Counted from the stretch's first letter, positions 19,201-63,770 are shown. The stretch is DNA of 64,000 nt from an uncultured Pseudomonadota bacterium (GCA_964429275.1 CAYSBJ010000003.1:64906-128905); one strand, 5' to 3'. Notes: a model not told the origin generated them from the letters alone. Numbers and translations are program-made.

Positions 19201-19464
19201 GGCGACAAGGACTTTCTTCCAGAGAGAGAAACGCTTTTGCAGTAGTAAATATGCCTCTTCCGTCTCAGAAGAAGGGTTGGCCAGGAAGGCCTTCTCGGCA
19301 GCTTGTTTTGCCCGATATAGGTGCAAGCATTTCGCGGCGACGCCCCCAAATGCTACGGTTGCCGTTCCGGGGATGAGCGGAGATTTTGCATGTGCCGTTG
19401 GTTGGAGTTGCAGGCACAGGCAGGCGAGCGTCAGGAACGTGTGTCGCAGAGATAATTTTATCAT
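16264..19464 (-). CDS. large ankyrin-repeat protein with an N-terminal signal/bilobed hydrophobic region, a tandem Pro/Thr/Ser-rich repeat and a helical repeated C-terminus
   Basis: Signal peptide 'MIKLSLRHTFLTLACLCLQLQPTAHA'. Two hydrophobic segments. A 162/192-bp tandem repeat at 18794-19150. ANK-like units ('DEHGRTPLAKALSMGD', 'NGHTLLIEALTGSGH'). Repeated helical modules end in 'K(A/V)(R/K)K..LDK(D/E)L..KM'. The start was moved to the ATG at 19464. Confidence 0.65.
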   Translation of the reverse strand: MIKLSLRHTFLTLACLCLQLQPTAHAKSPLIPGTATVAFGGVAAKCLHLYRAKQAAEKAFLANPSSETEEAYLLLQKRFSLWKKVLVAAFGSAAVAWLLHLKGDAEQPTSHSTPQRASEIEPIATSPVSQEAEIQEAPADESTSTLRGTTPPATTSPRHTPTSQNNTSLDEQPISNQTPQRASEIEPIVTSPGSQAPESIEEEETPATTAPKHTPTPQNDTSLDYDSNDESETHPITKPSPRHSPARILTPAAPSPRPIDKPLSPSPVAETEPQPETPTVRFDELMKAIDLWGSRETIEQHLTAETVNLQDEHGRTPLAKALSMGDPKDFNREWLVRKLVDARADITKPLTFQNETAPMLPLFYAIEHCSLATQKELITAETANQQQNGAFPIVKLLEKQARTNNLQGALFLECFTKMLDAMTDPNLAKYNGHTLLIEALTGSGHYEGVLERLLSCLKIRRDRATNGQSPFEVALQQNKRMTVLIKLFCEEDTESYSLQQALDSGTQNKEAVVSFLMEKGIAPQAGNIKKAEENKLSTDLIRRMKALRATKLSEEASALAHSPDHNLHSVYTKLDEFAQEKLTIDPSLVDSLICTSLQTHPTTTVNDGDIRAALAYGLPDNSEAMKELIALQRKNEIAGIREKFKDHKVYSPSQMVQGLLALQSNDDDIRMLADKELAVHPGWSVDEHHIAQLKAYPKTQELFRTTNEKRQKAAAEVDRAETIADILALAPSLYDTEIRTHVARVIKAGHLPTKEELTDLNANPRYNSTSHLGDKSALELAQAAHNKQVREQNIARATTITELFNITNDIMRSMDYRSDLKRIPMQIRDAWWRKVYELLENLNYNLTKEEEALLLEYAGDEKNNYKKRIAVRKKRLILLSELEATTTVGQFFRKMAEWNDSIDDAIRAKINSHLQAVINDSQRKGIILFDNIEKARKYRLDKDLIGKMDEMRIERIENKIKGTTTIPSLMSIADMLEIEDRLTRRAIDIINNHLRALIAEYDKPHSTLPRVTSDNIKVAKKLDLDKELVKKMNLLRKAGLEKEQEEERLKSEAPGKADDENEEPTE

Positions 19465-19549
19465 ATTAGTATTCCAATAAGGTTGTTGATTTTTCAAATT
19501 GTGCCTTTATTGTCGCATATTTCTGCTTAAAACGTCAATCGGTCTCCGC

Positions 19550-27660: not shown

Positions 27661-27714
27661 GAGCTCTTGCCGGCATAGAATCGAATTGCTCTTGATTTTA
27701 ATTGATTGTTTCCT

Positions 27715-27751
27715 GAACGGGGCCCCAAAAGAGGGCCCCGTTCTCTTTTTT
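27715..27751 (+). terminator. rho-independent terminator
   Basis: gaacggggcccc-aaaagag-ggccccgttc followed by tctttttt. Confidence 0.85.
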
Positions 27752-27814
27752 CGGGATATACGATATACTGAACGGGTCAAAAGCCTTTTAAATGTAGGCT
27801 TTTTAGGGAGAAAT

Positions 27815-28870
27815 ATGAAGATTGCAGTGTTAGTTTCTGGTGGGGTTGATAGTTCGGTGGCACTTGCCCGTTTGCATGAGCAGGGGCATGAAGTCACCGC
27901 TTTTTATCTCAAGATTTGGCTGGAAGATGAGCTTTCCTTTTTAGGGGATTGTCCGTGGGAGGAAGACCTCTCTTTTGTGCGTGCGCTGTGTGAGCAATTG
28001 AACATTCCGTTGCAGGTAGTCCCGCTGCAAGAAGCGTATCGTGATCGCATCGTCTCCTATACCATTAACGAAATTCGTGCCGGTCGAACCCCGAGCCCCG
28101 ATGTCCTCTGTAATGTGCGCATAAAGTTTGGTGCATTTTTAGAAGCGATTGATAGCTCGTACGAAAAAGTGGCGAGCGGTCATTACGGCCAAATTCGTCA
28201 AGCGGCTGATGGTTCATATGAGCTGGTCTGTAGCCCGGATGAAGTAAAAGATCAAACCTATTTCCTTTCTCATTTAAGCCAAGCACAATTGGAGCGCATT
28301 TTGCTGCCGATTGGCCATATGACCAAACAAGAAGTTCGCGAAGAGGCACAGCGGTACCTGGTGCCGTCCCGTGACCGCAAAGATTCACAGGGGATCTGCT
28401 TTCTTGGGAAAATTAGTTTTACCGAGTTTATTGAGCATTACCTTGGTACGCAGGCAGGGGATATCATCGAAGAAGAGACCGGTGACTTGCTCGGTTCGCA
28501 TAACGGCTTCTGGTTTCTTACGATCGGCCAACGTCATGGACTCCGTCTTTCTGGTGGTCCGTGGTATGTCGTGCGCAAGGATACCGTAGCTAACCAGATT
28601 TTTGTGTCGCGGCGCTATCACGCTGAGGATAAAAAGCGGGATGCTTTTGTGATGCGTGACGTCCATTTCATTGGCCGGCGGCCGGAATCAAATATCGTCA
28701 GTATGAAAGTGCGACATGGTCCTGAGCGAGTAATGGCGGAGCTAAAACCGCTTGCTGATGGGCGATATGCGGTGCAGCTGGCCAAGCGGGATCAAGGCCT
28801 GGCGCCGGGGCAATTTGCGGTTATGTACAATGGGGACGTGTGCCTTGGATCTGGTGTCATTGATGACTGA
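27815..28870 (+). CDS. mnmA: tRNA-specific 2-thiouridylase MnmA
   Basis: PP-loop 'VLVSGGVDSSVAL', with 'PDVLCN', 'KDQTYFL' and 'DSQGICFLG'. The start was moved to the ATG at 27815. Confidence 0.92.
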   Translation: MKIAVLVSGGVDSSVALARLHEQGHEVTAFYLKIWLEDELSFLGDCPWEEDLSFVRALCEQLNIPLQVVPLQEAYRDRIVSYTINEIRAGRTPSPDVLCNVRIKFGAFLEAIDSSYEKVASGHYGQIRQAADGSYELVCSPDEVKDQTYFLSHLSQAQLERILLPIGHMTKQEVREEAQRYLVPSRDRKDSQGICFLGKISFTEFIEHYLGTQAGDIIEEETGDLLGSHNGFWFLTIGQRHGLRLSGGPWYVVRKDTVANQIFVSRRYHAEDKKRDAFVMRDVHFIGRRPESNIVSMKVRHGPERVMAELKPLADGRYAVQLAKRDQGLAPGQFAVMYNGDVCLGSGVIDD

Positions 28871-29004
28871 GAATGTGTTTGTACTAGTTTTATAATGAAT
28901 TTTGCTGCCACCGTGCTATTTTTGCTTGAATTGCCAATATGTTTCTTGGCGGTTGATGGTGGGTGTATACTGAAAAATATGATGTCTTTAAAGAGGGGTT
29001 TTTT

Positions 29005-32000
29005 ATGGTAAAAAGAAATATGCGGCTTTTAGTTTTGATAGTAAGTGTTGTTGGCATGGCTAATAGCTTATTTGCGGATGGATCTCGATTTGAGACTGTG
29101 TCCAAGCATGTTAAAAAGAACCGTCATGCCTATGCCGTTGGGCTTGGAACTGCCGGCCTCCTGAACTTGGCTTACTTATTTAAAAGTGGCAAGCTCAGCA
29201 AAGCTAAGCTCAAAAGACTTTTCAATAAAGAAAATAGCGCTGTAACAACGCAGCTATTGCTTGGCAGTATCCTGCCATTAATCCTTGCGGGAGGCGTTGA
29301 ATTCAATGGCCATGGCTATACGGAAGATGGCGATAATCCAACAGGTGCGGAAAAGCCGACAGGTGCTGAAAAACTAAAAACCGCTGGCGACGCAGTGCGA
29401 CTTCTGACCGGTGAGCTGAGCAAAGAGCAGCTGCGCGCTATGGATGCCGTGGGTGTTGATGCGCCGATAAAAAAAAGAGGCTCTCTAGGAAAAGAGAGAG
29501 GGGCAGAGTGGCGTCAGTCCATCTATAATTTGGATGCTTCTGATGAGCAATCAGAGCGAGCACGGAAAATAGATTTAAACAGTTTCAAAAAAGTATCTGT
29601 GGCAACTGCGCCTGTAGTTAAGTCGGGAAGCGCTCCTGTCGCCTCACATTTAAGCGACCCGAGGGATTCTGTGATAGAGTCTGCACCATCTTCAACATTA
29701 TTATCGGAACATATCGCGAGAAACGTTAAGCATGACCCTAATCCTGCGCCTGTAGAGACTAGAGAAAGTGATGCATCTAGTAATCTTTTAGCGTCTACGC
29801 AATCGCCTGAGTCGTCAGAACTTGTGAAACCGTTGCCAAGAACAGTTTCTCGACGAGTTTCTCTGTCGCCATCAAGCTCTGCAAAATCTTCAGAGCCGGT
29901 GCCGCTGTTGGTGCCACGCCAACCAACTCTTGCCAGAAGCGCCGAGAATAGAGGCTTAAACAGTTTCGAAAAAGCATCTGTGGCAACTGTGCCTGTAGTT
30001 GAAGAACCAAGTGGGTCAGAGCCGGTGCTGCCGTTGGTGTCGCACCAACCAACTCCTTCCGGAACGGCGCTGAATGAAGCATCTATGCCAAGTGCGGATG
30101 AGGCGGAGTTGAAAAAAAAAGAGCTCCAAATTCAGAAGTCTGAGGGCAAAAAAATGTTGCGTGAGGATCTTCTTAGTCGTGAAATTGAGGCACGCGCGGC
30201 TGCACTAAAATATTATCCAGATAAGGTTAATGCTCTCAGCGCGGGGGGGGGCTTTTCTGATCTTTTCAATGAAGCTAACAAGAGCGGCCGCAGTGACGCA
30301 CATCTACTAGCGCGCGACCACTTAGAGTCTGCACTTTTTGCTGGAGGCGCCGAGGTAGAATCCCAAATAAGCCAGTTGACTTCCGAACGACTGGCTCAGC
30401 TTTTAGAATTTCTTATTCCTGATAAATACCTTTATGAGAGCTACGGTGATGATAGCAGGCTTCAGTTTTTAAAACAGGATATTCGCGCGATTTACAAGTT
30501 GCTCACCCTTCTGCGCAATGGGAAGGAACCAAAGGATATTGTCATAAATGCGCAGATCAACAAGAAGCTTCGAAACCGGGTAGCCGGATTGCCGCAGAAT
30601 GTAATTCAAAATGAGAAATACGTTTTAAATTCGCTAATTGATTATGCTTATTCTGCCTCCAAATCGCCACATAGGCCTATGATACTTAATCTGATTCCAG
30701 ATTTTGATGAATTAACGACTTTTCAGCAGCATGTGGTGAGCGATCTCGATGCAGCAGAAGGCTCTTCTTCTGCCGCGGGTCCTCTGGTGTCTGGTGTAGA
30801 TGGTGCAGACGGGTCGAAAGGCTCCCCTTTTGTCGAGCAAGATTCTTTAGACGGTGAGGATGACACTAAAAATAAAACTGCTCGTGATCATTATGAGAAG
30901 ACTTTGAGTAAAAAAGTCTTTGACCAGTGGAGAGCGAGTACTCCGTTGCGGGTTAAAAAGCGCGAAAGCTCAAAAAAAGCTGTCGATCGTGCTAATAAGA
31001 AGCTGCTAAAAACGTCGTTTGAGACATGGAGATCTACTGCGGCCCAACGGGAAGAGGAGGATGTATTGAGCGGTGATCCGACTCCGGTGAATTATGATGT
31101 GCTTATGGCGAATATGGAGCGTTATTCTGGTGCGGGTTTTTTAAATTTTGTTTCAAATGCAGCGAGTAAGGCGAGCGATCCAAAAGACTTAAGGTTGTCG
31201 CTGACTGGATTAATCATGGGGAATGATCCTCTCGGAATGAATAAGGTCAGTGGCGATCAGTTGACGGTGCTCCTTGATTTTATTGTTCCTGACAAAAAAA
31301 CCTATGATGAGTATAAGAAAGAAGATGATGATAACGCTCAGGCTCGCTGGCTTACTAGCGATATCAAGGCTGCCTACAAGCTTTTGATGACGGGTGTGTT
31401 TGAGGGTCGCTCTGATTGTCGGCTAACTCCTGAAAAGCGTGATGACCTTAAGCGTAGGGTTCGCTCCTTGAGGGCTTTACCTCAGCAAGTAGCTGCCTTT
31501 GATTGGATATTGGACAGGGCGTCAGATGGTCAGCCAGGTGATATTCCCGAATATATGCAGCAATATCAACTGAAGCTTGATGCGCCTTCAGGCAAGAGTG
31601 CGATGAGCTCTTCCGGGCCCGATTCCTCTGAAGAATCAGATAGCGAGGATGAAGAAGAAGTTGCTGGTGGCTCCTCTTCGGTTGGAACGGCAGCAAAAAG
31701 ACCAGCGGGTGGCTCTAGTTCAGAGCCAGAAAAAGCAGATCTAGCTTCACCTAGCGCCCCTGTCACAGCTGCTGCGACCGCTCCTGTGGCTCCTAAAACT
31801 ATAGTGATTAATAAAGATCAGGATGGTGCCATCTCGAATGTTACTTATGAAAATTTGTCCTCAGATATTAACCCTGGTCGCGTTGATGGTTTTTGTACGA
31901 AGCACAAAGCTAGCCTGAACAAAATTATATTGAAAGATACCGACCAAGAATCTAGTGTTGCGACAGTTGGCTCTGCAGTGTTATTCGTTTATAGCGGTCA

Positions 32001-32157
32001 TCACTACTTCCTCATGCGCTATAGTGTTCGTGGCAAATGGTTCTCGCACATTCTTGATATAAATGGGCTTGAGATCAAAAATAGTTTGCTAATTCCTTCC
32101 TCTGGAGCTATTGCAGCATACAAAACGATCAAAAACACTATGGATTTACTTCGATAA
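29005..32157 (+). CDS. bilobed-hydrophobic-module family protein (member B) with two 'LLEFLIPD' domains and a C-terminal Cys-His domain
   Basis: SD aagagggg then the ATG at 29005. Module 'HVKKNRHAYAVGLGTAGLLNLAYLFKSGKLSKAKLKRLFNKENSAVTTQLLLGSILPLILAGGVEFNGHGY'. Domains 'LAQLLEFLIPDKYLYESY' and 'LTVLLDFIVPDKKTYDEY'. The C-terminus has 'VDGFCTKH' then, 35 aa later, 'VLFVYSGHHYF'. Confidence 0.65.
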   Translation: MVKRNMRLLVLIVSVVGMANSLFADGSRFETVSKHVKKNRHAYAVGLGTAGLLNLAYLFKSGKLSKAKLKRLFNKENSAVTTQLLLGSILPLILAGGVEFNGHGYTEDGDNPTGAEKPTGAEKLKTAGDAVRLLTGELSKEQLRAMDAVGVDAPIKKRGSLGKERGAEWRQSIYNLDASDEQSERARKIDLNSFKKVSVATAPVVKSGSAPVASHLSDPRDSVIESAPSSTLLSEHIARNVKHDPNPAPVETRESDASSNLLASTQSPESSELVKPLPRTVSRRVSLSPSSSAKSSEPVPLLVPRQPTLARSAENRGLNSFEKASVATVPVVEEPSGSEPVLPLVSHQPTPSGTALNEASMPSADEAELKKKELQIQKSEGKKMLREDLLSREIEARAAALKYYPDKVNALSAGGGFSDLFNEANKSGRSDAHLLARDHLESALFAGGAEVESQISQLTSERLAQLLEFLIPDKYLYESYGDDSRLQFLKQDIRAIYKLLTLLRNGKEPKDIVINAQINKKLRNRVAGLPQNVIQNEKYVLNSLIDYAYSASKSPHRPMILNLIPDFDELTTFQQHVVSDLDAAEGSSSAAGPLVSGVDGADGSKGSPFVEQDSLDGEDDTKNKTARDHYEKTLSKKVFDQWRASTPLRVKKRESSKKAVDRANKKLLKTSFETWRSTAAQREEEDVLSGDPTPVNYDVLMANMERYSGAGFLNFVSNAASKASDPKDLRLSLTGLIMGNDPLGMNKVSGDQLTVLLDFIVPDKKTYDEYKKEDDDNAQARWLTSDIKAAYKLLMTGVFEGRSDCRLTPEKRDDLKRRVRSLRALPQQVAAFDWILDRASDGQPGDIPEYMQQYQLKLDAPSGKSAMSSSGPDSSEESDSEDEEEVAGGSSSVGTAAKRPAGGSSSEPEKADLASPSAPVTAAATAPVAPKTIVINKDQDGAISNVTYENLSSDINPGRVDGFCTKHKASLNKIILKDTDQESSVATVGSAVLFVYSGHHYFLMRYSVRGKWFSHILDINGLEIKNSLLIPSSGAIAAYKTIKNTMDLLR

Positions 32158-53521: not shown

Positions 53522-54163
53522 ATGGACTATTCAGTGTTAATGTGGCTGCCGATATCGTTGTATGCGATAGCGCCATGGCCACAAGTGCGAACCAACTATC
53601 GAAGAGGCGACGCCGTCGGCTTGAGCCATTGGATGTTGTTTCTGCGGATTTTTGCTGTTTCAAGCTACACTGTGTATGTCTATCTACTTGACCTCCCGCT
53701 GGCACATAAGCTCTTGTATCCGATCTGTCTGTCTGGGCTCATTACACTTGCAATCCAAGGCTACTATTACGATCACCATCGGTCGGCGCAGCGCTGGTTG
53801 CGGTTTGCGTATTTCAAACAAATAACTGTTCTGGCGGCTCTGGTCGTCATGGGTTTCTGGTATCCAATTCAGGCCGGCATGTTGGCTGGCTGGTGCGCAG
53901 TGGTCACCGGTGTGATGTCTGATATGCCTCAGATTTACCGGAATTGGTGGCGAAAAAGTACGGTGGGGTTCAATATCCTCTTCTCTTCCGCCATTGGTTT
54001 TGGCGGTATTTGTGATTTAATCTTGTCTTTCGTGTACGGCTTGCCATTACCAACCATTCTGGCGACTGCCCGTGTAACGATCTGTTACTTCATTTATCTT
54101 ACTCAGTTCTTTGTGTATCGGCAGCGTGGGGCTGGTAATAGTGCGACGCCGATACAGAAGTAA
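53522..54163 (+). CDS. 7-TM PQ-loop repeat protein, paralog 1
   Basis: Two PQ motifs: 'APWPQVRTNYRRGDAVGLS' and 'MSDMPQIYRNWWRKSTVGFN'. ~7 hydrophobic segments. Confidence 0.7.
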   Translation: MDYSVLMWLPISLYAIAPWPQVRTNYRRGDAVGLSHWMLFLRIFAVSSYTVYVYLLDLPLAHKLLYPICLSGLITLAIQGYYYDHHRSAQRWLRFAYFKQITVLAALVVMGFWYPIQAGMLAGWCAVVTGVMSDMPQIYRNWWRKSTVGFNILFSSAIGFGGICDLILSFVYGLPLPTILATARVTICYFIYLTQFFVYRQRGAGNSATPIQK

Positions 54164-54334
54164 TGGCCGATCGTTTAATGAGCGGCTCGGCGATGAGTTG
54201 CTGATTTTGTCTCCCGTAGCATAAAACTATATCGTTTCTCTTATCTCATTGGATACACTCCTTAAGTCTTTTGGCCATCATCCGCTTCATCGTGAGACAC
54301 GCTGTCGCTATGACCATTTTTAAGGAATATCTGC

Positions 54335-54961
54335 ATGATACAATTAGCCGAATACATTGCCTGGGTTCCTATGCTGCTGTTTTGTGCCGCACCGTTGGCG
54401 CAGGTTTATCTTAACTGGCGTAAACAGTCTAGTAAGAGTCTGAGTCAATGGACTGTATTTTTGGGAATTTGTGGGCTTCTCTGCTCGCTGCTCTATGACC
54501 ATTTTATGTGCTTGCCGCTTGCCTATCGTGTTATGCATCCGCTTATACTTTTTGCCTGGCTGACTTTGGCGCTTCAGGAGTTTTGGTATAGTGGGCGGAC
54601 GAAGGTGCGGATGAGTGTGGTATACAGCTATACTGTTGTGCTGGCGCTGGCGGCAGGAGCGTTGGTCTGGGGGCGTTGGTATCCCCTTGAGATTGGTTTT
54701 ACAACTGGCTGGCTTTTTACGATTTTGTATGCCATCTTCCAGCTTCCGCAAATTGTGAAAAATCAGCAGGCGCGGAGTGTTGAGGGATTGAGTTTTTGGT
54801 ACGTTTCCATGCTGGGCGCGGCTGCATGTGCAGAGCTTGGTATTGCGTTTATGCGTTTGTTGCCGCTGCAAAGTGTGTTGAGTGCGGTGCGTGGTGTGTT
54901 GGTGTACGGCATATTTGTCTATCAGTTTGCATCATTTAGTCGCAACCCGAGAAAGGAATAA
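54335..54961 (+). CDS. 7-TM PQ-loop repeat protein, paralog 2
   Basis: 'AAPLAQVYLNWRKQSSKSLS' (first motif is AQ) and 'IFQLPQIVKNQQARSVEGLSF'. Confidence 0.7.
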   Translation: MIQLAEYIAWVPMLLFCAAPLAQVYLNWRKQSSKSLSQWTVFLGICGLLCSLLYDHFMCLPLAYRVMHPLILFAWLTLALQEFWYSGRTKVRMSVVYSYTVVLALAAGALVWGRWYPLEIGFTTGWLFTILYAIFQLPQIVKNQQARSVEGLSFWYVSMLGAAACAELGIAFMRLLPLQSVLSAVRGVLVYGIFVYQFASFSRNPRKE

Positions 54962-54969
54962 GAAAGTAT

Positions 54970-55611
54970 ATGGGTGAATTAAGTGTTATTTCTTACGGTT
55001 GGCTTGCCTGGGTCCCTTTTACGATTCAGTATTTTGCAGGGATGCCTCAGATCCTGTTGAACTATCAAAATCATTCGACCGCTGGACTCAGCTATCGAAT
55101 GGTCTTCTTTGATTACACCGGTAATTTAGCAACGACAATGTACACCTTTTTGTTGGTTCTTCCGCTTGCTTGCCGCGTTATGGAACCGCTTTGTTTGTTT
55201 AATATAGGCCTACTGGTGGCACAGTGTTTTTATTACTGCCGTGAGAAAGAGTCGCGCCAGTTCTTGGTTGCCTCGTATGCCACACTTCACGTAGTCGCCG
55301 GCCTCCTGTTGACGATTGCTTGGTGGTATCCAGCCGCTATTGGCAATGCAATGGGATGGATTTCGGTTGTGGTACAAATATTTACTCAGCTGCCGCAGGT
55401 GCTCAAAAACCATGCACGCAAAAGCGTAAAAGGGCTGAGCTTTGCCTATATCTCACTGCTTGGCTTTGCGGGGCTCATGGAGACGGTAATCTCTTTCTTA
55501 CTTGATTTGCCCATCCAGAACGTGTGTAATGGTCTGCGTGCGGTGGGCTATTATCTTGTGTTGTGTTACCAGTTTCGGCGCTACTCGGTACGCGCTGCAG
55601 CAATATCTTAA
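54970..55611 (+). CDS. 7-TM PQ-loop repeat protein, paralog 3
   Basis: 'FAGMPQILLNYQNHSTAGLSY' and 'IFTQLPQVLKNHARKSVKGLSF'. Confidence 0.7.
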   Translation: MGELSVISYGWLAWVPFTIQYFAGMPQILLNYQNHSTAGLSYRMVFFDYTGNLATTMYTFLLVLPLACRVMEPLCLFNIGLLVAQCFYYCREKESRQFLVASYATLHVVAGLLLTIAWWYPAAIGNAMGWISVVVQIFTQLPQVLKNHARKSVKGLSFAYISLLGFAGLMETVISFLLDLPIQNVCNGLRAVGYYLVLCYQFRRYSVRAAAIS

Positions 55612-55618
55612 GATAGGC

Positions 55619-57913
55619 TTACTGCTTGCCCTCAGCAGCTTTAATAGCCTCCCCCAGGGGATCGGTGAGAGAGCTATGATCGGGAATCCCGTACCCATAA
55701 TTGTAGATCTCTGTACGAATCCTCTTAGCGGCGGCCAGGTCAGTCAGCGTTATTGGTTGCTTCTTAGCAAGCTCAATAAGCTCGATGGCTTCTAGGCCTG
55801 TTTTTAGTTCGTAAAGGAGCGTCGGCTTTGTTGTGAAAAGCGTCGCTAGCTTATTGGCTATTTGCTGAGCAATAGGATCATCTTGTGCGGTTTTCTGTAT
55901 TAGCTCAAATGCTGCGGTGAAGGAAGCCGATTCTGCTTTTAAGGGCAGTTCGCCATACGTATTGCCGTAGAGCGCATTCCATTTGGTGCAAACCTCAGTG
56001 TAGTACCTGCATTTGCCTTCTAAGGAGGCATCGCCGCTTTCTACGTACAAGCTGCCATTCTCCGGGTTTCTTTGTAAAGGAATGGGAATGTTATCATCAG
56101 AAAGCTCACTTAGGAACTTGCTACCGCTTTCCTCGAGTGACGCCTCTTCCTCCTCTATCTCGTCAAGGCGGCTCTGCATTATATCATCTATTTTCTGAAT
56201 TGCAGTCTTGACTCCTGGGAGGGTAAGCTTTCCTATAAAGTGCTTAAATTCCTCGCTCGTGTCGTATACCTTGCCGCCATCAGACATGTCAGCGACTTTA
56301 GTTTCGAACATGTTTATTACGCTGCTCACTAAAGCCTCGTGGATTGCTCTTAAATCGTTAGCGAATGTTTTCGTCATCTCATTATCCACGATATCTTTTG
56401 GTAGAGTTTTCAGAGATTTATTAATTACGTCAGCTTTCGAGAGGCGCTGCTCGGAATCATCCATTATCAGTGGATCATGGAGCTCCTCGGTGTACAGGGT
56501 GAGAAGGCGGCTAAGTGCACTTTCTTTCATAAGCTTCATAACTTCTGTAGTAAATGGTCGGTTTTGGGCATTCGTTGGGCTCCTCTTCAGGAATTGTTCT
56601 AAGTCGCTTGAGTTGTCCTTGGCAGATAAATCTTTTTGTATCTCCTGTAAGAATTGGCTTAAGAGTTTTTCCTTGAATTCTTTCAAAGCTGTGGCGGCAC
56701 GAGAATCTGGAGAAAGTTTGCTTAGAAGTGCGCTAATCTCTTCTCCTTTTTGAAATACAATATTCACGTCGACTTGGTTGGTTTTATCCTCCAGGTCTCT
56801 AACGAATTGTTCAAAATCTGCTATCTGTTGTTGTATCTCAGGGGTGATTGAGGAATCTGCTGCACTTGCGTTTGTCGTCAACAAGGGAGTATCTTCGTCT
56901 GTAGGCTTTACTGTCTCGTGTTTTCCTGAAGGGCTTTGGTCGTCCGCGTTCGGCACCACGGAAGTCGTAGTCGGCTTCAACTGTATGTCTTTATCATCTC
57001 GAACAGAGTTCGCGGGCTGCGGGTTTTGAACTACGCTTGAGTCCTTTCCAGTAGGTTTTACTTGGGGGAGAGTCGTATGAACGGGCTTTGCAAGGCTTGT
57101 TCGAGGAGATACGTCTTTCGCATCTGGATTTTTTAGTGTTTTAGTATGTTCTGTGACGGGTGCAGTAACTCTCATAGAAGTTTTTTGTTCTTCTCGGCTC
57201 TCTGCTTTTGTGACTTCCGGTTCAGCGTTCACGAGGTTATCAGGAGTCTCTGCAGCAGGTTTTGCTTGAGGGAGTGGCACGGCCCTAGGGGTGCGCATTG
57301 GGTTTGTAGAAGTTTGGCTGGGTTCAGTGTTTTCTGTGCCAGGTGCAGTAACTCTGATAGGAGTCTCTTGTTTTTCTGGGCTCTCTGCTTCTGTGACCCC
57401 CGGTTTAGCCTCTATCGGGTTATCATTAGTCTCTTCGGCAAAATTTGGTAGTGGCGTATCTGAGCTGGCGCTGACTGCATTGCTTTCGTTGCCTCCAGTG
57501 TCGTTCGTATTGCTTTCTTGAGCATGTACGGTTATTGACGGATCCTGTTTTGGCGATGTTTGTTCTTTAGCGTAGCCATAGCCATTGAACTCAACACCTC
57601 CCGCAAGGATGAATGGTAGGAGGCTGCCGAGGATTAATTGCGTTGTAACAGCGCGATTTTCTTTTTTGAAAAGTCTTTTGAGTTTAGCTTTGCTGAGTTT
57701 GCCACTTTTAAACAAGTAGGCCAAATTCAGGAGGCCAACGGCACCAAGTCCTGCAGCATACGTATGGCGATGCGTCTTGAGGTGGGTGTTCAGTGTGCCG
57801 AGTGCTGAGTCTTCTGTGCTGGCATCAGCGGCAGAGGGAGTGGTGTGCAGGTTGTTGGTGGCAAGTGCTGTAATGAGCAGTAGAGAAAGTAGGCGCAAGT
57901 GCTTGATATTCAT
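55619..57913 (-). CDS. bilobed-hydrophobic-module family protein (member C)
   Basis: The N-terminal 139 aa are identical to member D. Module 'HLKTHRHTYAAGLGAVGLLNLAYLFKSGKLSKAKLKRLFKKENRAVTTQLILGSLLPFILAGGVEFNGYGY'. A 183-bp tandem repeat lies at 57148-57445. The C-terminus is helical. Confidence 0.65.
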   Translation of the reverse strand: MNIKHLRLLSLLLITALATNNLHTTPSAADASTEDSALGTLNTHLKTHRHTYAAGLGAVGLLNLAYLFKSGKLSKAKLKRLFKKENRAVTTQLILGSLLPFILAGGVEFNGYGYAKEQTSPKQDPSITVHAQESNTNDTGGNESNAVSASSDTPLPNFAEETNDNPIEAKPGVTEAESPEKQETPIRVTAPGTENTEPSQTSTNPMRTPRAVPLPQAKPAAETPDNLVNAEPEVTKAESREEQKTSMRVTAPVTEHTKTLKNPDAKDVSPRTSLAKPVHTTLPQVKPTGKDSSVVQNPQPANSVRDDKDIQLKPTTTSVVPNADDQSPSGKHETVKPTDEDTPLLTTNASAADSSITPEIQQQIADFEQFVRDLEDKTNQVDVNIVFQKGEEISALLSKLSPDSRAATALKEFKEKLLSQFLQEIQKDLSAKDNSSDLEQFLKRSPTNAQNRPFTTEVMKLMKESALSRLLTLYTEELHDPLIMDDSEQRLSKADVINKSLKTLPKDIVDNEMTKTFANDLRAIHEALVSSVINMFETKVADMSDGGKVYDTSEEFKHFIGKLTLPGVKTAIQKIDDIMQSRLDEIEEEEASLEESGSKFLSELSDDNIPIPLQRNPENGSLYVESGDASLEGKCRYYTEVCTKWNALYGNTYGELPLKAESASFTAAFELIQKTAQDDPIAQQIANKLATLFTTKPTLLYELKTGLEAIELIELAKKQPITLTDLAAAKRIRTEIYNYGYGIPDHSSLTDPLGEAIKAAEGKQ

Positions 57914-58020
57914 AGAGAATCCCCGGCTAATTGTATAGTATTCTATGGTTTATTCTACACTATTTGAGTAAAAGAACGCAAATGATTGTGGTTTTTTACC
58001 GGCAAAAATAGTGTCTACTC

Positions 58021-59556
58021 TTACGCAGGATTTTGGATCACGAACGCTTCGCCATTCCACTGGAAGCCAGCCTTTATAAGCTTGTCGATCTTCTGAAGAA
58101 TGGGATGCTTCAGAAGCTCTTGCTGCCAATTAGGGCGCTCCTCACGTATTTGGATCTCATTAAAAAAATTAAAAGTTCTATTACGCGGAGAACTTTCCTT
58201 TTCAAAGCTGTGGCGAGTGGTGTCATGTCCTTGTGCAAGAGTCAATAAATCTTGAAGAAACTCCACCGCGTGATCTATATCCGAGATTGGGAAATCACTA
58301 TCCCCACCATAATCGGGATTTCCTAGCCAATTGGCCACGAGCGGAAAAGCTATTGGGTTATGAGGTAACTGTTCAACGACCGTACCTGCATTGTCTTTGA
58401 TTTCTCTTGCTATTGCCTCAAGCTTACCAGGTTCTGCTTTGAGATTTAGAATTAAGGAGTCTACTGCCAGTTTTTTAGTTGCCGCCCATTTTAGAGCTAT
58501 CTGAGATGTCGTCAATTCCTTTTCGCGTTGCAGCGACTTGGATAGCTGCGAGAGAGTTTCTATTTTTTTCTGCAGAGAATCACCGGCTTCTTTTTCCTTG
58601 AGCTCGCTCCATTTTCTGAGCATGCGATTGTGGATAGGATTAAATATATTTTTGAGCCAGTCTTTAATTTCATGGTTATGTACTGTCGAATCAAAACAAC
58701 CCTTTATCGTGGCTGTCTCAATGAGGTAGAGCGCTTGTTCGTCGATTTCAGCAACCTCAGTGCATGTATCAAGTCGTTTTGCAAATTCTTCAGTGTGCGC
58801 CATACGCTCTTCTATGGTTGGTGAAGATGCTTCAGCAGAGGCATCTTCTCCGTGGCGCGCGGCCGCTTTTTCGGTTTCCTCAGTGACGATTTCTGTGCTT
58901 TGCGCTACGCGCGGCACTCTGCCGCGCGTCTCTGCAGCAGGTTCTGTTGCCGGCATATTGGAGGTGGCGCTGGCAGGATCACTTTCGTTGTCTTCAGTAT
59001 CACTTTCGTTGTCTTCAGCGTCGTCCGTTTCTTCGACGGCTTCATTGCTGGTGTTTTGAATCTTAGAAGTAAGTGGCAAGGGGCTGCTTAGTGGTAGCAT
59101 ATTGGAGGTGGCGCTGACTGCATCACCTTCGCTGCCTCCAGTGTCGTTCGTATTGCTTTCTTGAGCATGTACGGTTATTGACGGATCCTGTTTTGGCGAT
59201 GTTTGTTCTTTAGCGTAGCCATAGCCATTGAACTCAACACCTCCCGCAAGGATGAATGGTAGGAGGCTGCCGAGGATTAATTGCGTTGTAACAGCGCGAT
59301 TTTCTTTTTTGAAAAGTCTTTTGAGTTTAGCTTTGCTGAGTTTGCCACTTTTAAACAAGTAGGCCAAATTCAGGAGGCCAACGGCACCAAGTCCTGCAGC
59401 ATACGTATGGCGATGCGTCTTGAGGTGGGTGTTCAGTGTGCCGAGTGCTGAGTCTTCTGTGCTGGCATCAGCGGCAGAGGGAGTGGTGTGCAGGTTGTTG
59501 GTGGCAAGTGCTGTAATGAGCAGTAGAGAAAGTAGGCGCAAGTGCTTGATATTCAT
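58021..59556 (-). CDS. bilobed-hydrophobic-module family protein (member D)
   Basis: It has the same N-terminal module as member C, then an acidic linker and an unrelated helical C-terminal domain. Confidence 0.65.
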   Translation of the reverse strand: MNIKHLRLLSLLLITALATNNLHTTPSAADASTEDSALGTLNTHLKTHRHTYAAGLGAVGLLNLAYLFKSGKLSKAKLKRLFKKENRAVTTQLILGSLLPFILAGGVEFNGYGYAKEQTSPKQDPSITVHAQESNTNDTGGSEGDAVSATSNMLPLSSPLPLTSKIQNTSNEAVEETDDAEDNESDTEDNESDPASATSNMPATEPAAETRGRVPRVAQSTEIVTEETEKAAARHGEDASAEASSPTIEERMAHTEEFAKRLDTCTEVAEIDEQALYLIETATIKGCFDSTVHNHEIKDWLKNIFNPIHNRMLRKWSELKEKEAGDSLQKKIETLSQLSKSLQREKELTTSQIALKWAATKKLAVDSLILNLKAEPGKLEAIAREIKDNAGTVVEQLPHNPIAFPLVANWLGNPDYGGDSDFPISDIDHAVEFLQDLLTLAQGHDTTRHSFEKESSPRNRTFNFFNEIQIREERPNWQQELLKHPILQKIDKLIKAGFQWNGEAFVIQNPA

Positions 59557-59834
59557 CGAGAATCCCCGGCTAAATTTATAGTATTCATGGTTTATTCTAC
59601 ACTATTTGAGTAAAAGAGCGCAAATGATTGTGGTTTTTAGTCGCGCAAGCGCACCACCTTTATCAAAGAGCGTGAAGCCCTTTGGGGGGGGGGGATGCGG
59701 TTTGGCCGCATGAAGGAAATATATGCTAGAATCAAGGCTTGAGTGGCTGCGTATTGGTCAATGGTATCTTTTTATTTAAGATTACTTATATGCTTAAGAT
59801 AGTACTGTGGTTGGTTGTTTTTGAGAGGAGCTCT

Positions 59835-60608
59835 ATGAATATTTCAGTGTGGTTGTTGTGCGCATTATTGGGGAATGTGGCCACCATGACTGCTACTCCC
59901 GGGCACATTAAGCCAGGAAAATTATTTGTAGCTTCGGGGCAATTTGATTCGCTTCTTAGCTCTCTGCGGAAAGAGCTGAAGAAAGCGCAGACGGTTAACC
60001 CTATGGACGCCGTAATTAAGTCCTTTTCCGACACAGTGAGTGCAGTGAACGGGCTTCTTGTTCAGCAGCAGCAACAATGGAAAACATTCCTTGATACTGA
60101 GGAAGGTGCTCTGTCCGTAGTACTAGATATTTCAATGTTTATTGCTGGTGTTGCGACAGTACTTTCTACTATGCCTCCGGCTTCTGACGATGCTATGAAG
60201 ACATACCGTTCTGTTGCTGCCGACTGCAATAAGGCGCTGCAAGCGGTTATTTCAAATCCAAATTTCATGTTGTTGCCTATGAATTCCGACGAAGCAAAGG
60301 CGATACTGAATGCCAATAATAAGAAGCCAGAGTCAGCATCGAGTACAGCCAACCTTGTCGTGCCAGATGCGACGCTTTCTGGTCCTCCAACTCCTGCTGT
60401 CGCCATGCAGCCGACACCATCAGTATCGACTGATATAGCGCTTGGGCAGAATACTGCGATTTCCGGTCCGATGGGCGCAATGACTATGCCGTCCGATATG
60501 ATGGCTCCGATTTCGTGTGTATCAGCATCTTCCACTGGACCATCAGGGTCTGATGCATCTCTTGTTTCGCCTGTGGCGCCGGGTGCAGTTTCCGCTCCGC
60601 AGTCCTAA
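59835..60608 (+). CDS. hypothetical secreted protein with a Ser/Pro/Ala-rich tail
   Basis: SD gagagga then the ATG at 59835 (MNISVWLLCALLGNVATMTA). No recognisable family. Confidence 0.45.
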   Translation: MNISVWLLCALLGNVATMTATPGHIKPGKLFVASGQFDSLLSSLRKELKKAQTVNPMDAVIKSFSDTVSAVNGLLVQQQQQWKTFLDTEEGALSVVLDISMFIAGVATVLSTMPPASDDAMKTYRSVAADCNKALQAVISNPNFMLLPMNSDEAKAILNANNKKPESASSTANLVVPDATLSGPPTPAVAMQPTPSVSTDIALGQNTAISGPMGAMTMPSDMMAPISCVSASSTGPSGSDASLVSPVAPGAVSAPQS

Positions 60609-60791
60609 ACGATTAATTGATTGTTAAGGGCGATTGCTTGCAGCTGGACTTCGTTCATGGAGGCGGCACTGTAGCCCCTTATAATCAAAAGGCCGAGTGT
60701 GGCTAAAGAAAAAAAGAATGATTTTTTAATTGAATTGCGATTGCAGTCGTAGTTTTTTTTGTAATGTACTTCGTACTTGCAAAGGGGAAAG

Positions 60792-60879
60792 CTGGTGGAG
60801 AGAGAGGGATTCGAACCCCCGATGCCTTTCAACATAACGGTTTTCAAGACCGCCGCATTCAACCGCTCTGCCATCTCTC
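60792..60879 (-). tRNA. tRNA-Ser (anticodon UGA)
   Basis: Minus-strand read: GGAGAGATGGCAGAGCGGTTGAATGCGGCGGTCTTGAAAACCGTTATGTTGAAAGGCATCGGGGGTTCGAATCCCTCTCTCTCCACCA. It has a long variable arm, a T-loop GTTCGAATC and an encoded CCA. Confidence 0.9.
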
Positions 60880-60914
60880 CATGAATGTACATATTTTTGT
60901 TTGCCCGTAGGCGA

Positions 60915-61006
60915 ATGGTGGAGAGAGAGGGATTCGAACCCTCGATACCCTTTTCAGAGTATACGCACTTAGCAGGCGCGCGCTTTCGACCGCTCAGCCA
61001 TCTCTC
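60915..61006 (-). tRNA. tRNA-Ser (anticodon GCU)
   Basis: Minus-strand read: GGAGAGATGGCTGAGCGGTCGAAAGCGCGCGCCTGCTAAGTGCG...GGGTTCGAATCCCTCTCTCTCCACCA. The anticodon loop is CTGCTAA, with a long variable arm and an encoded CCA. Confidence 0.9.
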
Positions 61007-61086
61007 CATACCGTAGAATTTCGTTTTCACGAATATTATTACACATATTTTATAGACCGCAAGTTCGCATAAACTTGTTTTAAGAA

Positions 61087-61163
61087 TGGTGCGCCCAATA
61101 GGAGTCGAACCTATAACCGCCAGATTCGTAGTCTGGTACTCTATCCAATTGAGCTATGGGCGC
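61087..61163 (-). tRNA. tRNA-Arg (anticodon ACG)
   Basis: Minus-strand read: GCGCCCATAGCTCAATTGGATAGAGTACCAGACTACGAATCTGGCGGTTATAGGTTCGACTCCTATTGGGCGCACCA. It aligns arm by arm with E. coli tRNA-Arg(ACG). Confidence 0.92.
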
Positions 61164-61495
61164 ACATATATTTCAAAGTATTTAGTCTGTATTTGTTATA
61201 TGAGCCTGCGGCAGTCCGCTGTAGTTAGCTGTTCTAGCGTAACGAAGGAGGAAGCTATGGGCGCACATATATTTCAAAACGAGCCGGAAGTATAGTCAAT
61301 AAAAAAACGATTGTCTTCAGAAAAGTGTATTTTTTGAGAAATTTTTTCTTTTGCCTGCTGAAAGGCCCTCGTTTTTGCCCCATATAGAAACATTTTTGCA
61401 GTCGCCCATATCTTAATTTTTTCTTATATGCTAATATCCGCGACCCTTTTTTTTACATATACAGCCGTTTTTACCATTGTTTTATCGTATTTTGG

Positions 61496-62206
61496 ATGTA
61501 TTGCATGCATAAGGGAATTGTATTTGGGCTCGCCGTAAGTGTTTTTTTTATTGGAAGTGCAGATGCTGCTGATGGGGCCATCGTAAGGAAGGTTTCAGGG
61601 GAAAACGGTTTTCTAACCCCGGAGCAACTTTGCACAGCCAAAAAATATCAAGACTTTTTTTCGAAAAACACCTCACATAATTCAACACAGTTTGTGTGGA
61701 AGTTGGTTTTGGGGAGTCGTAACCACCGGCTTGAAGGCTCACTCGATGATTATAGGCGATATAAAGAGTGTTTCCAGCATGAAAGACGTGAGTTCCTTGG
61801 TGCATTGCGTTCTTCTCGCCATAAACTTACCAGGACTGACGTAATTCTGCTTGAGCTTTATACAACACATATTTTTATGTGGGGGTTCATGTGTGCTCTT
61901 ATGGACGGCTATGATGCCCTCACGTGGCCTATGAAGAAAGAGCGGGAGTTCAGTAACTTTGATTATTATTGTGAACTGGCCTGGAATACGTTAGAGGAAA
62001 ATCAAAAACAAGATACTGACTTTGTGTGCCGCTTAAGGGAAAAGGAAAAAGAGGAGCTTGGACTAGATCGTCCAGCAGAGCGAGATCGTTGGTTGGCTGA
62101 GATTGTACCGTCATATAAGCTCGTAGGATATGAATACATAGTGATAGGCAAAAGAGGCCCAAAAAAAACCTCTTGCATAACAATAGAATATGCCTTGGCA
62201 GAATGA
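61496..62206 (+). CDS. small secreted protein, tandem paralog 1
   Basis: Signal peptide ending 'GSADAADG'. It shares 'LT.EQ.C', 'RY.ECF', 'LYT.H.F.W..MCA...GY' and 'YKLV.YEY' with 62301..63017. Confidence 0.55.
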   Translation: MYCMHKGIVFGLAVSVFFIGSADAADGAIVRKVSGENGFLTPEQLCTAKKYQDFFSKNTSHNSTQFVWKLVLGSRNHRLEGSLDDYRRYKECFQHERREFLGALRSSRHKLTRTDVILLELYTTHIFMWGFMCALMDGYDALTWPMKKEREFSNFDYYCELAWNTLEENQKQDTDFVCRLREKEKEELGLDRPAERDRWLAEIVPSYKLVGYEYIVIGKRGPKKTSCITIEYALAE

Positions 62207-62300
62207 TGAAAAAGAAATTACTGCTGATGGTAGTTCTTTTTCGGCTTGCGAGTGCAGCCGATCTCAGTTTTTAGTATTCATACGTTGTTGGGTTTAGTTC

Positions 62301-63017
62301 ATGTATAAAAAGATTATATTGAGTATCGTAGTAGGCGGGGGGTTCTTAGGGAATGCGTATGCTGCTGATGGGCAGTGGGTGCGAATTCCAGACGCTGGGG
62401 GCCTTTTGACTGCTGAACAACAATGTGTTGCTCAAGAGTATCTTCGTTTGTTATCTGCTTCTACTGTTGAGACATGTGTGGATTTTGTTTCACGGACTGT
62501 TTTGGTGCATCATCAGCGAGGCATATCTGTTAGCCCGACTTATACATGTTCGCGCTATAGAGAGTGCTTTGCGTCGAAAAGGTCTGAGCTTATTGCGTTG
62601 TTGAGCACCCCTGATCGTATACCAAGTAGGGATGATATTGCTGAGCTTCAGCTGTATACGCTTCACACTTTCGCGTGGGATCTTATGTGTGCGGTGGCAA
62701 TTGGTTATCAGAAGCTCGCCGGGAACTATGAACAGTCATTTTCTCAGTACTGTGGATTTTTATATACAACGTTAATGCATAATCTGCAAGAAGATAGCAG
62801 CTTTTGTGTTAAAGCGAGAGACGGAGAGCGTGCGGTATCAGGAGAGAGTTCCTTATCAGAGCGCCAATGCTTTTTGACGGAGTGTGCTCCGCCATTAAAA
62901 CTGGTGGCATTTGAATACAGACGCAGCCCGGCGGAAGCAGATGAGGCCCGGCCACAAAGGAAACCTTTTTTTGAATTGAGAGTAATCGATATAGTGCTAC
63001 GGCCTATAACAGACTAA
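62301..63017 (+). CDS. small secreted protein, tandem paralog 2
   Basis: Signal peptide ending 'GNAYAADG'. It is collinear with paralog 1. Confidence 0.55.
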   Translation: MYKKIILSIVVGGGFLGNAYAADGQWVRIPDAGGLLTAEQQCVAQEYLRLLSASTVETCVDFVSRTVLVHHQRGISVSPTYTCSRYRECFASKRSELIALLSTPDRIPSRDDIAELQLYTLHTFAWDLMCAVAIGYQKLAGNYEQSFSQYCGFLYTTLMHNLQEDSSFCVKARDGERAVSGESSLSERQCFLTECAPPLKLVAFEYRRSPAEADEARPQRKPFFELRVIDIVLRPITD

Positions 63018-63029
63018 TGTGGGGGATAA

Positions 63030-63770
63030 ATGAAAAATAAATTAATAATAACGCTTGGTTTTCTCGGGCTTATGAGCGGACTGCACGCGGCGGATAGTAC
63101 GTCCGGGGAAACCTTGGAAGTGCATACGCCTAGCAAGGGGAGCGTGTCACTAGTTGGTGAGGCTGCAACACCGGAAATGGTGACGGCGCCGTTAGGTTCG
63201 CCATGGTCTGAGAAGATTCAGGAAGCGATCGTTGAAGATGTTTCTAAAGAAAATGAGCAGCCTGGTCAAATGACGGTAGGGGAGTTTGTGGAGCGCTTTA
63301 TGGGTGGCTATCTTACTTTTGAAGAAATTGAGCAGCGACTGTGCCAAATCAATCTGTGGGGGGAGCTGTTTTTACACCGAATGTGGGATGTGTTTGAGGC
63401 ATCACGAAGTCGAGAAGGGTGTAATTTTTTCTCAACGAATGAGGGTAAATGGTATTGTATAGTTCTTGTCTACATGACGCAGTTTTTGGAACCAGCGGCC
63501 ATTTATGACTACGCACAGATCTTCTCGCCGGAAGGGTGGGCGTATTTCTTAGAAAAGCTAGAAATTTACTGTTGTAGAGAGACTAGAAGCGTTTTAGAGG
63601 GCGTAGCCAAGTATTGCTATGGCGAGAGAATGTGCGGGCGTATTGAGCGACTCAGGAACAGTCGGCACGCCTACTGGTTTATTGTTCGTGCATATTCAGC
63701 TGAAGGAAAGGAAGTGTTTAATGATTCGTTTTCGCAGGTGAAGGCACGGTTGCCCTCTATACCTGAGTAA
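63030..63770 (+). CDS. small secreted Cys-containing protein
   Basis: Signal peptide 'ITLGFLGLMSGLHAADS'. Its size and position match the two preceding genes. Homology to them is not evident by eye. Confidence 0.5.
   Translation: MKNKLIITLGFLGLMSGLHAADSTSGETLEVHTPSKGSVSLVGEAATPEMVTAPLGSPWSEKIQEAIVEDVSKENEQPGQMTVGEFVERFMGGYLTFEEIEQRLCQINLWGELFLHRMWDVFEASRSREGCNFFSTNEGKWYCIVLVYMTQFLEPAAIYDYAQIFSPEGWAYFLEKLEIYCCRETRSVLEGVAKYCYGERMCGRIERLRNSRHAYWFIVRAYSAEGKEVFNDSFSQVKARLPSIPE

Follow-up and report, generated by a model that had tools for sequence, protein, structure and literature searches.

Probable recurrent gene conversion of a shared leader and predicted membrane-anchor module between two ancestral tandem genes of a Dependentiae-like bacterium

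We describe two adjacent genes, designated A and B, on the minus strand of a 64,000-nucleotide (nt) stretch of DNA from an uncultured bacterium (GCA_964429275.1 CAYSBJ010000003.1:64906-128905; the whole stretch is referred to as the window). The two genes carry nearly the same leader and exactly the same N-terminal coding module in front of unrelated C-terminal remainders, here called cargos. We consider it probable that leader and module have undergone recent and recurrent gene conversion, from B to A, between ancestral tandem members of one protein family. The process is clean but ordinary concerted evolution, a known phenomenon; what appears to be new is a small family in which one promoter and 5' untranslated region (UTR) and one anchor head many unrelated, fast-evolving cargos. 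Through conversion, anchor and regulation would stay the same from gene to gene even as the cargos rapidly diverge. The parts of the pair on which the argument rests are as follows.

55619-57913, minus strand: gene A, a complete open reading frame (ORF) of 764 amino acids (aa) with the module, a ~230-aa linker rich in Pro, Thr, Ser and Glu, and an A-type helical cargo.
58021-59556, minus strand: gene B, a complete ORF of 511 aa with the module, an acidic Ser/Thr/Glu linker and a B-type helical cargo.
57490-57913, minus strand: identical tract, copy A, from the ATG to codon 141, read here as the latest conversion tract.
59133-59556, minus strand: identical tract, copy B, from the ATG to codon 141, the probable donor.
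57914-57996, minus strand: leader of A, a promoter-like region plus 5'UTR, with four substitutions and one indel relative to the leader of B.
59557-59638, minus strand: leader of B, a promoter-like region plus 5'UTR.
57445-57489, minus strand: older 3' homology in A, ~75% identical to 59088-59132, inside which the putative conversion tract ends.

Base-by-base comparison of the assembled sequence gave no mismatch over 424 nt (57490-57913 against 59133-59556, at an offset of 1643 nt). This run lies within a near-identical block, 57466-57996 against 59109-59638, which was recovered by both repeat search and pairwise alignment and contains eight substitutions and one indel in ~531 nt. A preliminary description of the window had placed the block at 57467-57998 and 59110-59639, which is right to within 1-2 nt; the identity of the encoded N-termini that it reported is confirmed as well, with a length of 141 aa and not 139. 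It had also described the divergence beyond this point as abrupt. The next ~15 codons are in fact still homologous (NESNAVSASS versus SEGDAVSATS), and the proteins are unrelated after these. Immediately 3' of the perfect run, four of the 24 nt at 57466-57489 are mismatched; no similarity between A and B is seen 3' of the ~75% zone (57445-57489), and comparison of the C-terminal remainders by BLASTP was not significant (best E = 1.3). The leaders (~83 nt) are 94% identical, with substitutions at 57914, 57931, 57933 and 57976 and a 1-nt insertion in A at 57944, whereas no synonymous difference separates A from B at 87 synonymous sites (115 codons). A chance origin of the block is excluded.

The divergence between the copies is unevenly distributed. 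Five differences in the ~85 nt of the leader stand against none in the 424 nt of coding sequence (Fisher p = 1.2e-4), and because leader, coding sequence and 3' zone differ in their identity (94%, 100% and ~75%), at least two events of different age are indicated. In the earlier event, leader and module would have been copied together, the leaders now being ~6% different; in a very recent one, the stretch from the ATG to codon 141 would have been replaced, with no differences left and with its 3' end within the older homology. The transfer would be non-reciprocal homologous recombination, with B most probably the donor of leader and module.

Conversion is favored over a simple recent duplication because the tandem pair is ancient and yet its copies are identical. 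The age of the pair can be read from the genes that flank it.

53522-55611, plus strand: three tandem PQ-loop genes (Pfam PF04193) on the flank of A, used as a synteny anchor.
60793-61163, minus strand: tRNA-Ser(tga), tRNA-Ser(gct) and tRNA-Arg(acg), the synteny anchor on the B side.

In L010, a contig of a distant relative (JGI 3300027924), a p246-like gene is followed by tRNA-Arg(acg), tRNA-Ser(gct), tRNA-Ser(tga), P0010, P0018, three PQ-loop genes and an M17 peptidase. The PQ-loop genes are 83-84% and the M17 peptidase 90% identical in aa sequence to those of the window, and synonymous sites are saturated between the two genomes. P0018 holds the position of A and has the YY..KWN.LYGN.YG.LP motif of A, and the same three tRNAs adjoin module genes in L010 and in L002, a contig of a closer relative. 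The two modules of L010 are 58-60% identical, with a synonymous divergence (dS) of ~3. Given this collinearity with the window, and given synonymous saturation between the two L010 modules, the tandem pair is ancient, predating the split between L010 and the window. The PQ-loop paralogs, whose ordered triple is kept in L010 (7817-10076), are ~30-37% identical to one another.

The closer relative is a metagenome-assembled genome (MAG), GCA_030917105.1. Between this MAG and the window the neighboring gene p289 has a dS of ~0.42, and the module of B differs from its syntenic ortholog on L002 by a dS of 0.43, equal to that neighbor. B is taken as the donor because the dS of its module matches vertical descent in this way, and the direction from B to A appears probable. 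The module of P0009, the A-type protein of the closer MAG, is 52-54% identical to that of A, with dS saturated, and within the MAG the A-type (P0009) and B-type (P0008, L002) modules are only 45-52% identical; three paralogs there have 78-83% nt identity, none of them being identical. For positional or cargo orthologs of A and B in general, aa identity is 48-69% and dS runs from 0.43 to saturated. It follows that across a delimited tract the paralogs (100% over 424 nt) are closer to each other than to their orthologs, as gene conversion implies. Gene conversion is likewise indicated by a duplication older than the divergence of the genomes compared, and by a tract end within ~75% homology together with uneven divergence, this last being subject to possible collapse of single-nucleotide polymorphisms (SNPs) by the assembler.

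Further indication of exchange comes from another member of the family in the window.

29005-32157, plus strand: third family member, 1050 aa, ortholog of P0006, with a module 60% identical in aa sequence to that of A/B.
29168-29306, plus strand: mosaic segment of ~140 nt in the module of this 1050-aa member.

The segment is 87% identical to A/B (57585-57723) and 70% to its own ortholog (P0006, L005). In the 5' 190 columns of the same module, 68 informative sites agree with the ortholog P0006 and seven with A/B. Informative sites for A/B and for the ortholog stand at 34:10 within 29168-29306 versus 8:72 in both flanks (Fisher p = 3e-14), and a piece of module of foreign origin has entered either the gene at 29005 or its ortholog. 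To judge from these site patterns, the segment is a second, older recombination tract between members ~28 kb apart, and with it exchange would recur beyond the A/B pair.

Several points weigh against this interpretation. A de Bruijn assembler may have collapsed isolated SNPs in the interior of the repeat, so that the figure of exactly zero differences is perhaps overstated; such a collapse is conceivable because every surviving difference is chained to unique flanks, and it would weaken the two-event argument. There is no doubt that the two copies resemble each other far more closely in the repeat interior than in the leader. Moreover, P0009 may be a paralog rather than a strict ortholog of A, the two cargos being only 31% identical over 132 aa, and for this reason the B-to-A direction is no better than probable. 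The contig of the nearest relative, L002, stops within the ortholog of B and so covers no second gene. In L010, the second gene of the tandem has no leader, the intergenic distance being 10 nt. If this leaderless state is ancestral, the leader of A came by a duplication with one non-homologous end; B could, for instance, have been duplicated in tandem, with a deletion between the B' and A modules afterwards. Homology on both sides is just as possible, because P0009 in the closer MAG has its own leader. Lastly, both AlphaFold2 models obtained for these proteins are of low confidence (predicted local distance difference test, pLDDT, 45-49), and the topology and export discussed below are predicted only.

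Among the alternatives, a single recent partial duplication fares best, although we regard it as improbable. It would have brought leader and module (~530 nt) from B or another paralog to the front of the A cargo with no later conversion, the five leader differences then reflecting faster change in non-coding DNA. The leaderless second gene of L010 is in keeping with this, as the leader of A could be a new insertion, and so is the 5' end of the block: the leader homology of A ends at 57996 in a sharp junction 23-24 nt downstream of the stop codon of B. Counting ~105 free synonymous sites, moreover, 0 versus 5/85 is far less extreme (~0.02 by a rough hand estimate). However, between genomes the leader is conserved like the coding module (78-88% versus 77-83% identity) and is therefore not neutral, fast-changing sequence; at its 3' side the identical run ends within the ~75% older homology, as a conversion tract predicts; and the A-type gene of the closer relative, P0009, has a leader and module of its own. 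Even a single duplication would have replaced an earlier module and would thus amount to non-reciprocal transfer between paralogs.

That the repeat is an assembly artefact, whether a collapsed or mis-joined metagenome repeat or two strain variants of one locus that were concatenated, seems to us quite remote. The genome appears to be an assembly from an uncultivated organism, a 424-nt exact repeat exceeds usual k-mers, and interior SNPs may be lost through bubble popping. On the other hand, the leaders differ at five positions, each copy being joined to a different unique flank, the junction between the 3' end of B and the leader of A is unique sequence, and the assembled path is the only linear one that uses each junction once. 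The same neighbors also enclose a two-gene tandem on L010, an independent metagenome contig. With these observations, the two-copy structure is unlikely to be an artefact, and a collapse would hide sparse SNPs only, so that even then the copies would resemble each other much more closely in the interior than in the leader. When P0001, P0002, P0005 and the neighboring PQ-loop protein were looked up exactly, in search of independent assemblies of the locus, no record was returned.

Programmed variation, in which leader and module would be the substrate of a dedicated switch between cargos as in Mycoplasma vsp/vpma/vsa or in silent-cassette antigenic variation, is the least credible explanation: a conserved 5'UTR and N-terminal export region with unrelated sequence downstream is a hallmark of vpma/vsp (PMC2268961), the cargos evolve very fast, and a G11/C11 tract lies 45 nt upstream of the leader of B, but A and B are both complete with a promoter-like leader, which leaves no silent cassette in the pair, the repeats run in the same direction, the scanned ORFs of >= 180 aa across the 64-kb window yielded no domain of an integrase, resolvase or transposase, the other family members are dispersed around the genome, and the module is without a lipobox. 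The homopolymer (59684-59694; G11 on the plus strand, C11 on the gene strand) is the sole G/C run of >= 10 nt in the window. It lies in the divergent intergenic region between a 289-aa gene and B, is missing at the orthologous place in L002, and could be either a site of strand slippage or an error of sequencing or assembly.

The preliminary description had proposed either recent duplication or ongoing conversion of the anchor and its promoter. This proposal is supported, and synteny with L010 together with the identity of the copies tips the balance toward conversion. The idea of a cassette-like pairing of one leader with different cargos holds as an evolutionary pattern (at least eight cargos), whereas no programmed mechanism is indicated. 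As for the suggestion that the direct repeats could mediate deletion or inversion of the intervening gene, deletion of the 1643-nt interval is plausible and would remove the B cargo together with the leader and module of A, leaving a leader-module-cargo A gene indistinguishable from A; inversion of the intervening DNA is ruled out because the repeats are direct.

The common module of A and B has the following predicted features.

57857-57913, minus strand: Sec-type signal peptide of A, codons 1-19; the same feature lies 1643 nt higher in B.
57587-57760, minus strand: transmembrane (TM) hairpin of A, codons 52-109; the same feature lies 1643 nt higher in B.

The signal peptide consists of the n-region MNIKHLR and the h-region LLSLLLITALA (residues 8-19), with A-L-A before T20, and this AXA-like site is conserved in the family alignment. 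By hydropathy, TM1 (residues 52-68) and TM2 (residues 89-109) enclose a basic loop (residues 69-88) with nine K/R and one D/E among its 20 residues; TM2 is followed by NGYGY, and an AGG-E-NGYGY motif after TM2 is invariant in the family alignment. A and B have no hydrophobic segments beyond the signal peptide, TM1 and TM2, and with no Cys within the first 30 residues they are without a lipobox. The AlphaFold2 model of the module (pLDDT 48.6, low confidence) places helices at residues 3-22, 49-69, 75-81 and 84-106. Searches of Pfam, NCBIfam and PDB sequences gave no significant match for A, B or the module. The ratio of nonsynonymous to synonymous divergence, a comparison that the preliminary description had proposed, is 0.15 for the module versus 0.56 for the rest of the protein, and the module is the more constrained part.

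Taken together, these features suggest that the module is probably a Sec-dependent membrane anchor. According to the positive-inside rule, basic loops of membrane proteins stay cytoplasmic. On the basis of the three hydrophobic segments, the 9:1 ratio of K/R to D/E in the loop and the conserved AXA-like site, we infer a topology in which the signal peptide would be cleaved at that site, TM1 and TM2 would form a hairpin with its lysine-rich loop in the cytoplasm, and the mature N-terminus, the linker and the cargo would lie outside the cytoplasmic membrane. Export of linker and cargo is predicted because the loop would be cytoplasmic under this rule.

The leaders of A and B each contain a promoter-like core.

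57952-57981, minus strand: promoter-like core of A, TTGCGT, 18 nt, TAGAAT, by consensus resemblance only.
59594-59623, minus strand: promoter-like core of B, TTGCGC, 18 nt, TAGAAT, by consensus resemblance only.

The leader of ~83 nt is common to A, B, the L002 gene, P0004 and P0003; its homology begins at one shared point, and the sequence upstream of that point is unrelated among these genes. The leader core is also found upstream of P0008 and P0009 and, in the distant L010 genome, upstream of P0010. In the window, a 25-nt leader core occurs exactly twice, against zero occurrences expected from shuffles. The spacer of the core, TTTTACTCAAATAG, is kept across genomes, and because this conservation extends to genomes with saturated synonymous sites, a regulator shared by the leader-bearing genes is suggested. 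A Shine-Dalgarno-like GGGGA at -11 in the leader is likewise recognized by consensus resemblance only. A sigma-70 promoter scan made no call in the leader, the -35 hexamer matching in just 3/6 positions, and a search of Rfam over 55000-61500 returned three tRNAs only and no match for the leader. Antisense terminator-like matches within the block were set aside, their frequency being no higher than chance.

Ten residue types, namely Pro, Ser, Thr, Glu and others that are likewise polar or small, account for 81-85% of the linkers, which expand through internal duplication. In the linker of A there is a 132-nt direct repeat (57140-57271 and 57323-57454; 77% identical, with a period of 183). The linker of B has a DTxxxExDxxSATSNM-coding motif twice (58928-59001 and 59072-59145) and a 21-nt repeat in 2.1 tandem copies (58974-59018).

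The cargo of A carries the motif YYxxVCxKWNxLYGxxYGxLP and is homologous to P0009 (E = 5e-13) and to the motif in P0018. The cargo of B has homologs in P0008 and in the L002 gene that is syntenic with B; the AlphaFold2 model of this cargo, of low confidence (pLDDT 45.0), is all-helical. The L002 ortholog of B runs on into ankyrin repeats, and the last residues of B (IDKLIKAGFQWN, also given as ILQKIDKLIKAGFQWNGEAFVIQNPA; 58021-58100) align with the first ankyrin-repeat helix of that ortholog (IKSLIKGGFNVN; L002 4930-5008). B appears to be truncated at its 3' end, with a stop codon 23-24 nt from the leader of A, and to judge from the alignment a deletion may have shaped the junction between the two. 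No Pfam Ank match was obtained in A or B, whereas ankyrin repeats are present in two relatives, P0003 and the L002 gene.

It appears that this protein family is lineage-specific, fast-evolving and previously undescribed. Its members combine the ~83-nt leader with an N-terminal module of ~115 codons, a long linker of low complexity and a cargo that varies within the family and is mostly helical or made of ankyrin repeats. A profile of the module run against 1.84 billion representative proteins matched just 12, which come from the genome of the window, from GCA_030917105.1 (a MAG of Candidatus Dependentiae) and from related metagenome and Logan contigs. In a word-indexed homolog search, the module profile found one protein and the cargo of A found only A; DNA-pattern and protein-pattern scans of JGI metagenome contigs and a scan of viral contigs gave no matches. 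The same leader and module head at least eight different cargos in three genomes. The cargo types of the family, and its fourth member in the window, are listed here.

Ankyrin repeats: P0003 and the L002 gene.
A-type domain: A, P0009 and P0018.
B-type domain: B, P0008 and L002.
Repeated LLEFLVPD...YE.Y domain: the genes at 25678 and 29005, P0006 and P0007.
Long coiled-coil-like protein: P0010.
25678-27660, plus strand: fourth family member, 660 aa, P0005, with a module 44% identical to that of A/B.

The members at 25678-32157 flank the tRNA-modification gene mnmA (27560-28870), and the order of mnmA followed by a module gene is kept in the related MAG (L005 1065-6203). Several module genes of that MAG lie at contig ends or show an N gap or frame break (L002 3700-3709 and ~4325; the ends of L003, L004 and L009), which suggests that repeats of the family disturb its assembly also.

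Release factor RF-1, FtsA/FtsZ, ATP synthase subunits, MetRS, signal peptidase I, transporters and Ank, Ank-RING and Sel1 proteins are encoded in the window. Its gene content resembles that of a chromosome from an intracellular bacterium with a reduced genome, and the homologs of its genes point to a relative of the Dependentiae as the source. Eukaryote-like proteins lie at 3951-5804 (ankyrin and RING-finger), 16264-19497 (a 1077-aa ankyrin protein) and 8166-8984 (Sel1-repeat). The tRNA cluster is flanked by three ORFans of ~240 aa, which are paralogs of one another and start with a signal-peptide-like N-terminus (61496-63770), and by the 289-aa ORFan (59739-60608). The L002 orthologs of the trio and of the 289-aa ORFan are only 68-70% identical, so these genes are fast-evolving too; the 289-aa gene is missing from L010.

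The Dependentiae (TM6) are widespread parasites of protists that are hardly ever cultured. Sec and type II secretion components have been reported in their genomes, and in C. destructans signal peptides occur on 44% of the coding sequences and on 78% of the ankyrin-repeat proteins (PMC6561590, PMC4776705). The locus offers handles on how these bacteria export and position many host-directed proteins: a promoter motif that may mark a regulon, an anchor with testable topology, and a gene pair in which recombination products can be sought. A bolder proposal, which we put forward as doubtful, is that leader and signal-peptide/TM-hairpin module form a co-regulated "display cassette" of one Dependentiae lineage that has been repeatedly recombined onto new cargos and kept uniform by frequent conversion. 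If this is true, all of its cargos use one route of export and anchoring and one regulator, and recombination between identical copies adds or deletes cargos, varying the host-interaction repertoire without a dedicated recombinase.

Several known systems invite comparison with the locus. In Rhs/CdiA polymorphic toxin loci, a conserved N-terminal part is combined with exchangeable C-terminal cassettes and neighboring copies can recombine; orphans in such loci are promoter-less 3' fragments followed by immunity genes. A polymorphic-toxin cassette was rejected here, A and B being full length with their own start and leader and giving no toxin or immunity domain matches. The TrbC/VirB2 pilins (PF04956) resemble the module in architecture only: a signal peptide precedes two hydrophobic helices that are joined by a short, basic loop in the cytoplasm. 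Weak matches to that family came from three of the 12 module sequences (best E 0.007; 12.8 bits versus a gathering cut-off of 27.9), the pilins are ~100 aa long and lack a cargo, the window showed no type IV secretion genes, and the assignment was not retained.

The chlamydial Inc proteins are alike in having two TM helices near the N-terminus with a loop of fewer than 30 residues (PMC3048545) and variable, often coiled-coil cargos; like the present proteins, they form a large, fast-evolving and phylum-restricted family of an intracellular bacterium. However, Inc loops average 8 residues without K/R/D/E (PMC3048545), whereas the loop here has 20 residues with 9 K/R. At the N-terminus, Incs have a type III secretion signal and the present proteins a predicted Sec-type signal peptide, and the two families show no similarity in sequence. 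Homologs of the module were found only in MAGs of the Dependentiae, whereas Incs are restricted to Chlamydiae, and the genome analyses of Dependentiae cited here do not list type III among the secretion systems that they report (PMC6561590, PMC4776705). On account of the charged loop and the Sec signal, assignment to the Inc family was rejected.

In M. agalactiae vpma and M. bovis vsp, a conserved 5' untranslated and signal-peptide region is followed by sequence with no homology further on (PMC2268961), much as the clustered genes A and B share a 5'UTR and signal-peptide region with an unrelated remainder. Unlike A and B, the vpma/vsp genes encode lipoproteins and undergo site-specific inversion by Xer1/Mbr around a single promoter. 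A Vpma-like switch was rejected on the grounds that the scanned ORFs of the window contain no recombinase, the copies are in direct orientation, both genes have a leader and there is no lipobox Cys.

The PE proteins of mycobacteria combine a conserved N-terminal domain for export with variable C-terminal parts. Within this group, gene conversion has been documented between the tandem duplicates PE_PGRS17 and PE_PGRS18 of M. tuberculosis (PMC1762029). The present genes have no sequence relationship to these (no Pfam match); in place of a PE domain or a type VII secretion signal, their module has a predicted Sec signal peptide plus TM hairpin, the tract takes in the promoter and 5'UTR, and the organism is Dependentiae-like and represented by metagenomes only. 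What the two cases have in common is that adjacent paralogs of a lineage-restricted family appear to have undergone non-reciprocal transfer of a block, across which the paralogs are closer to each other than to their orthologs.

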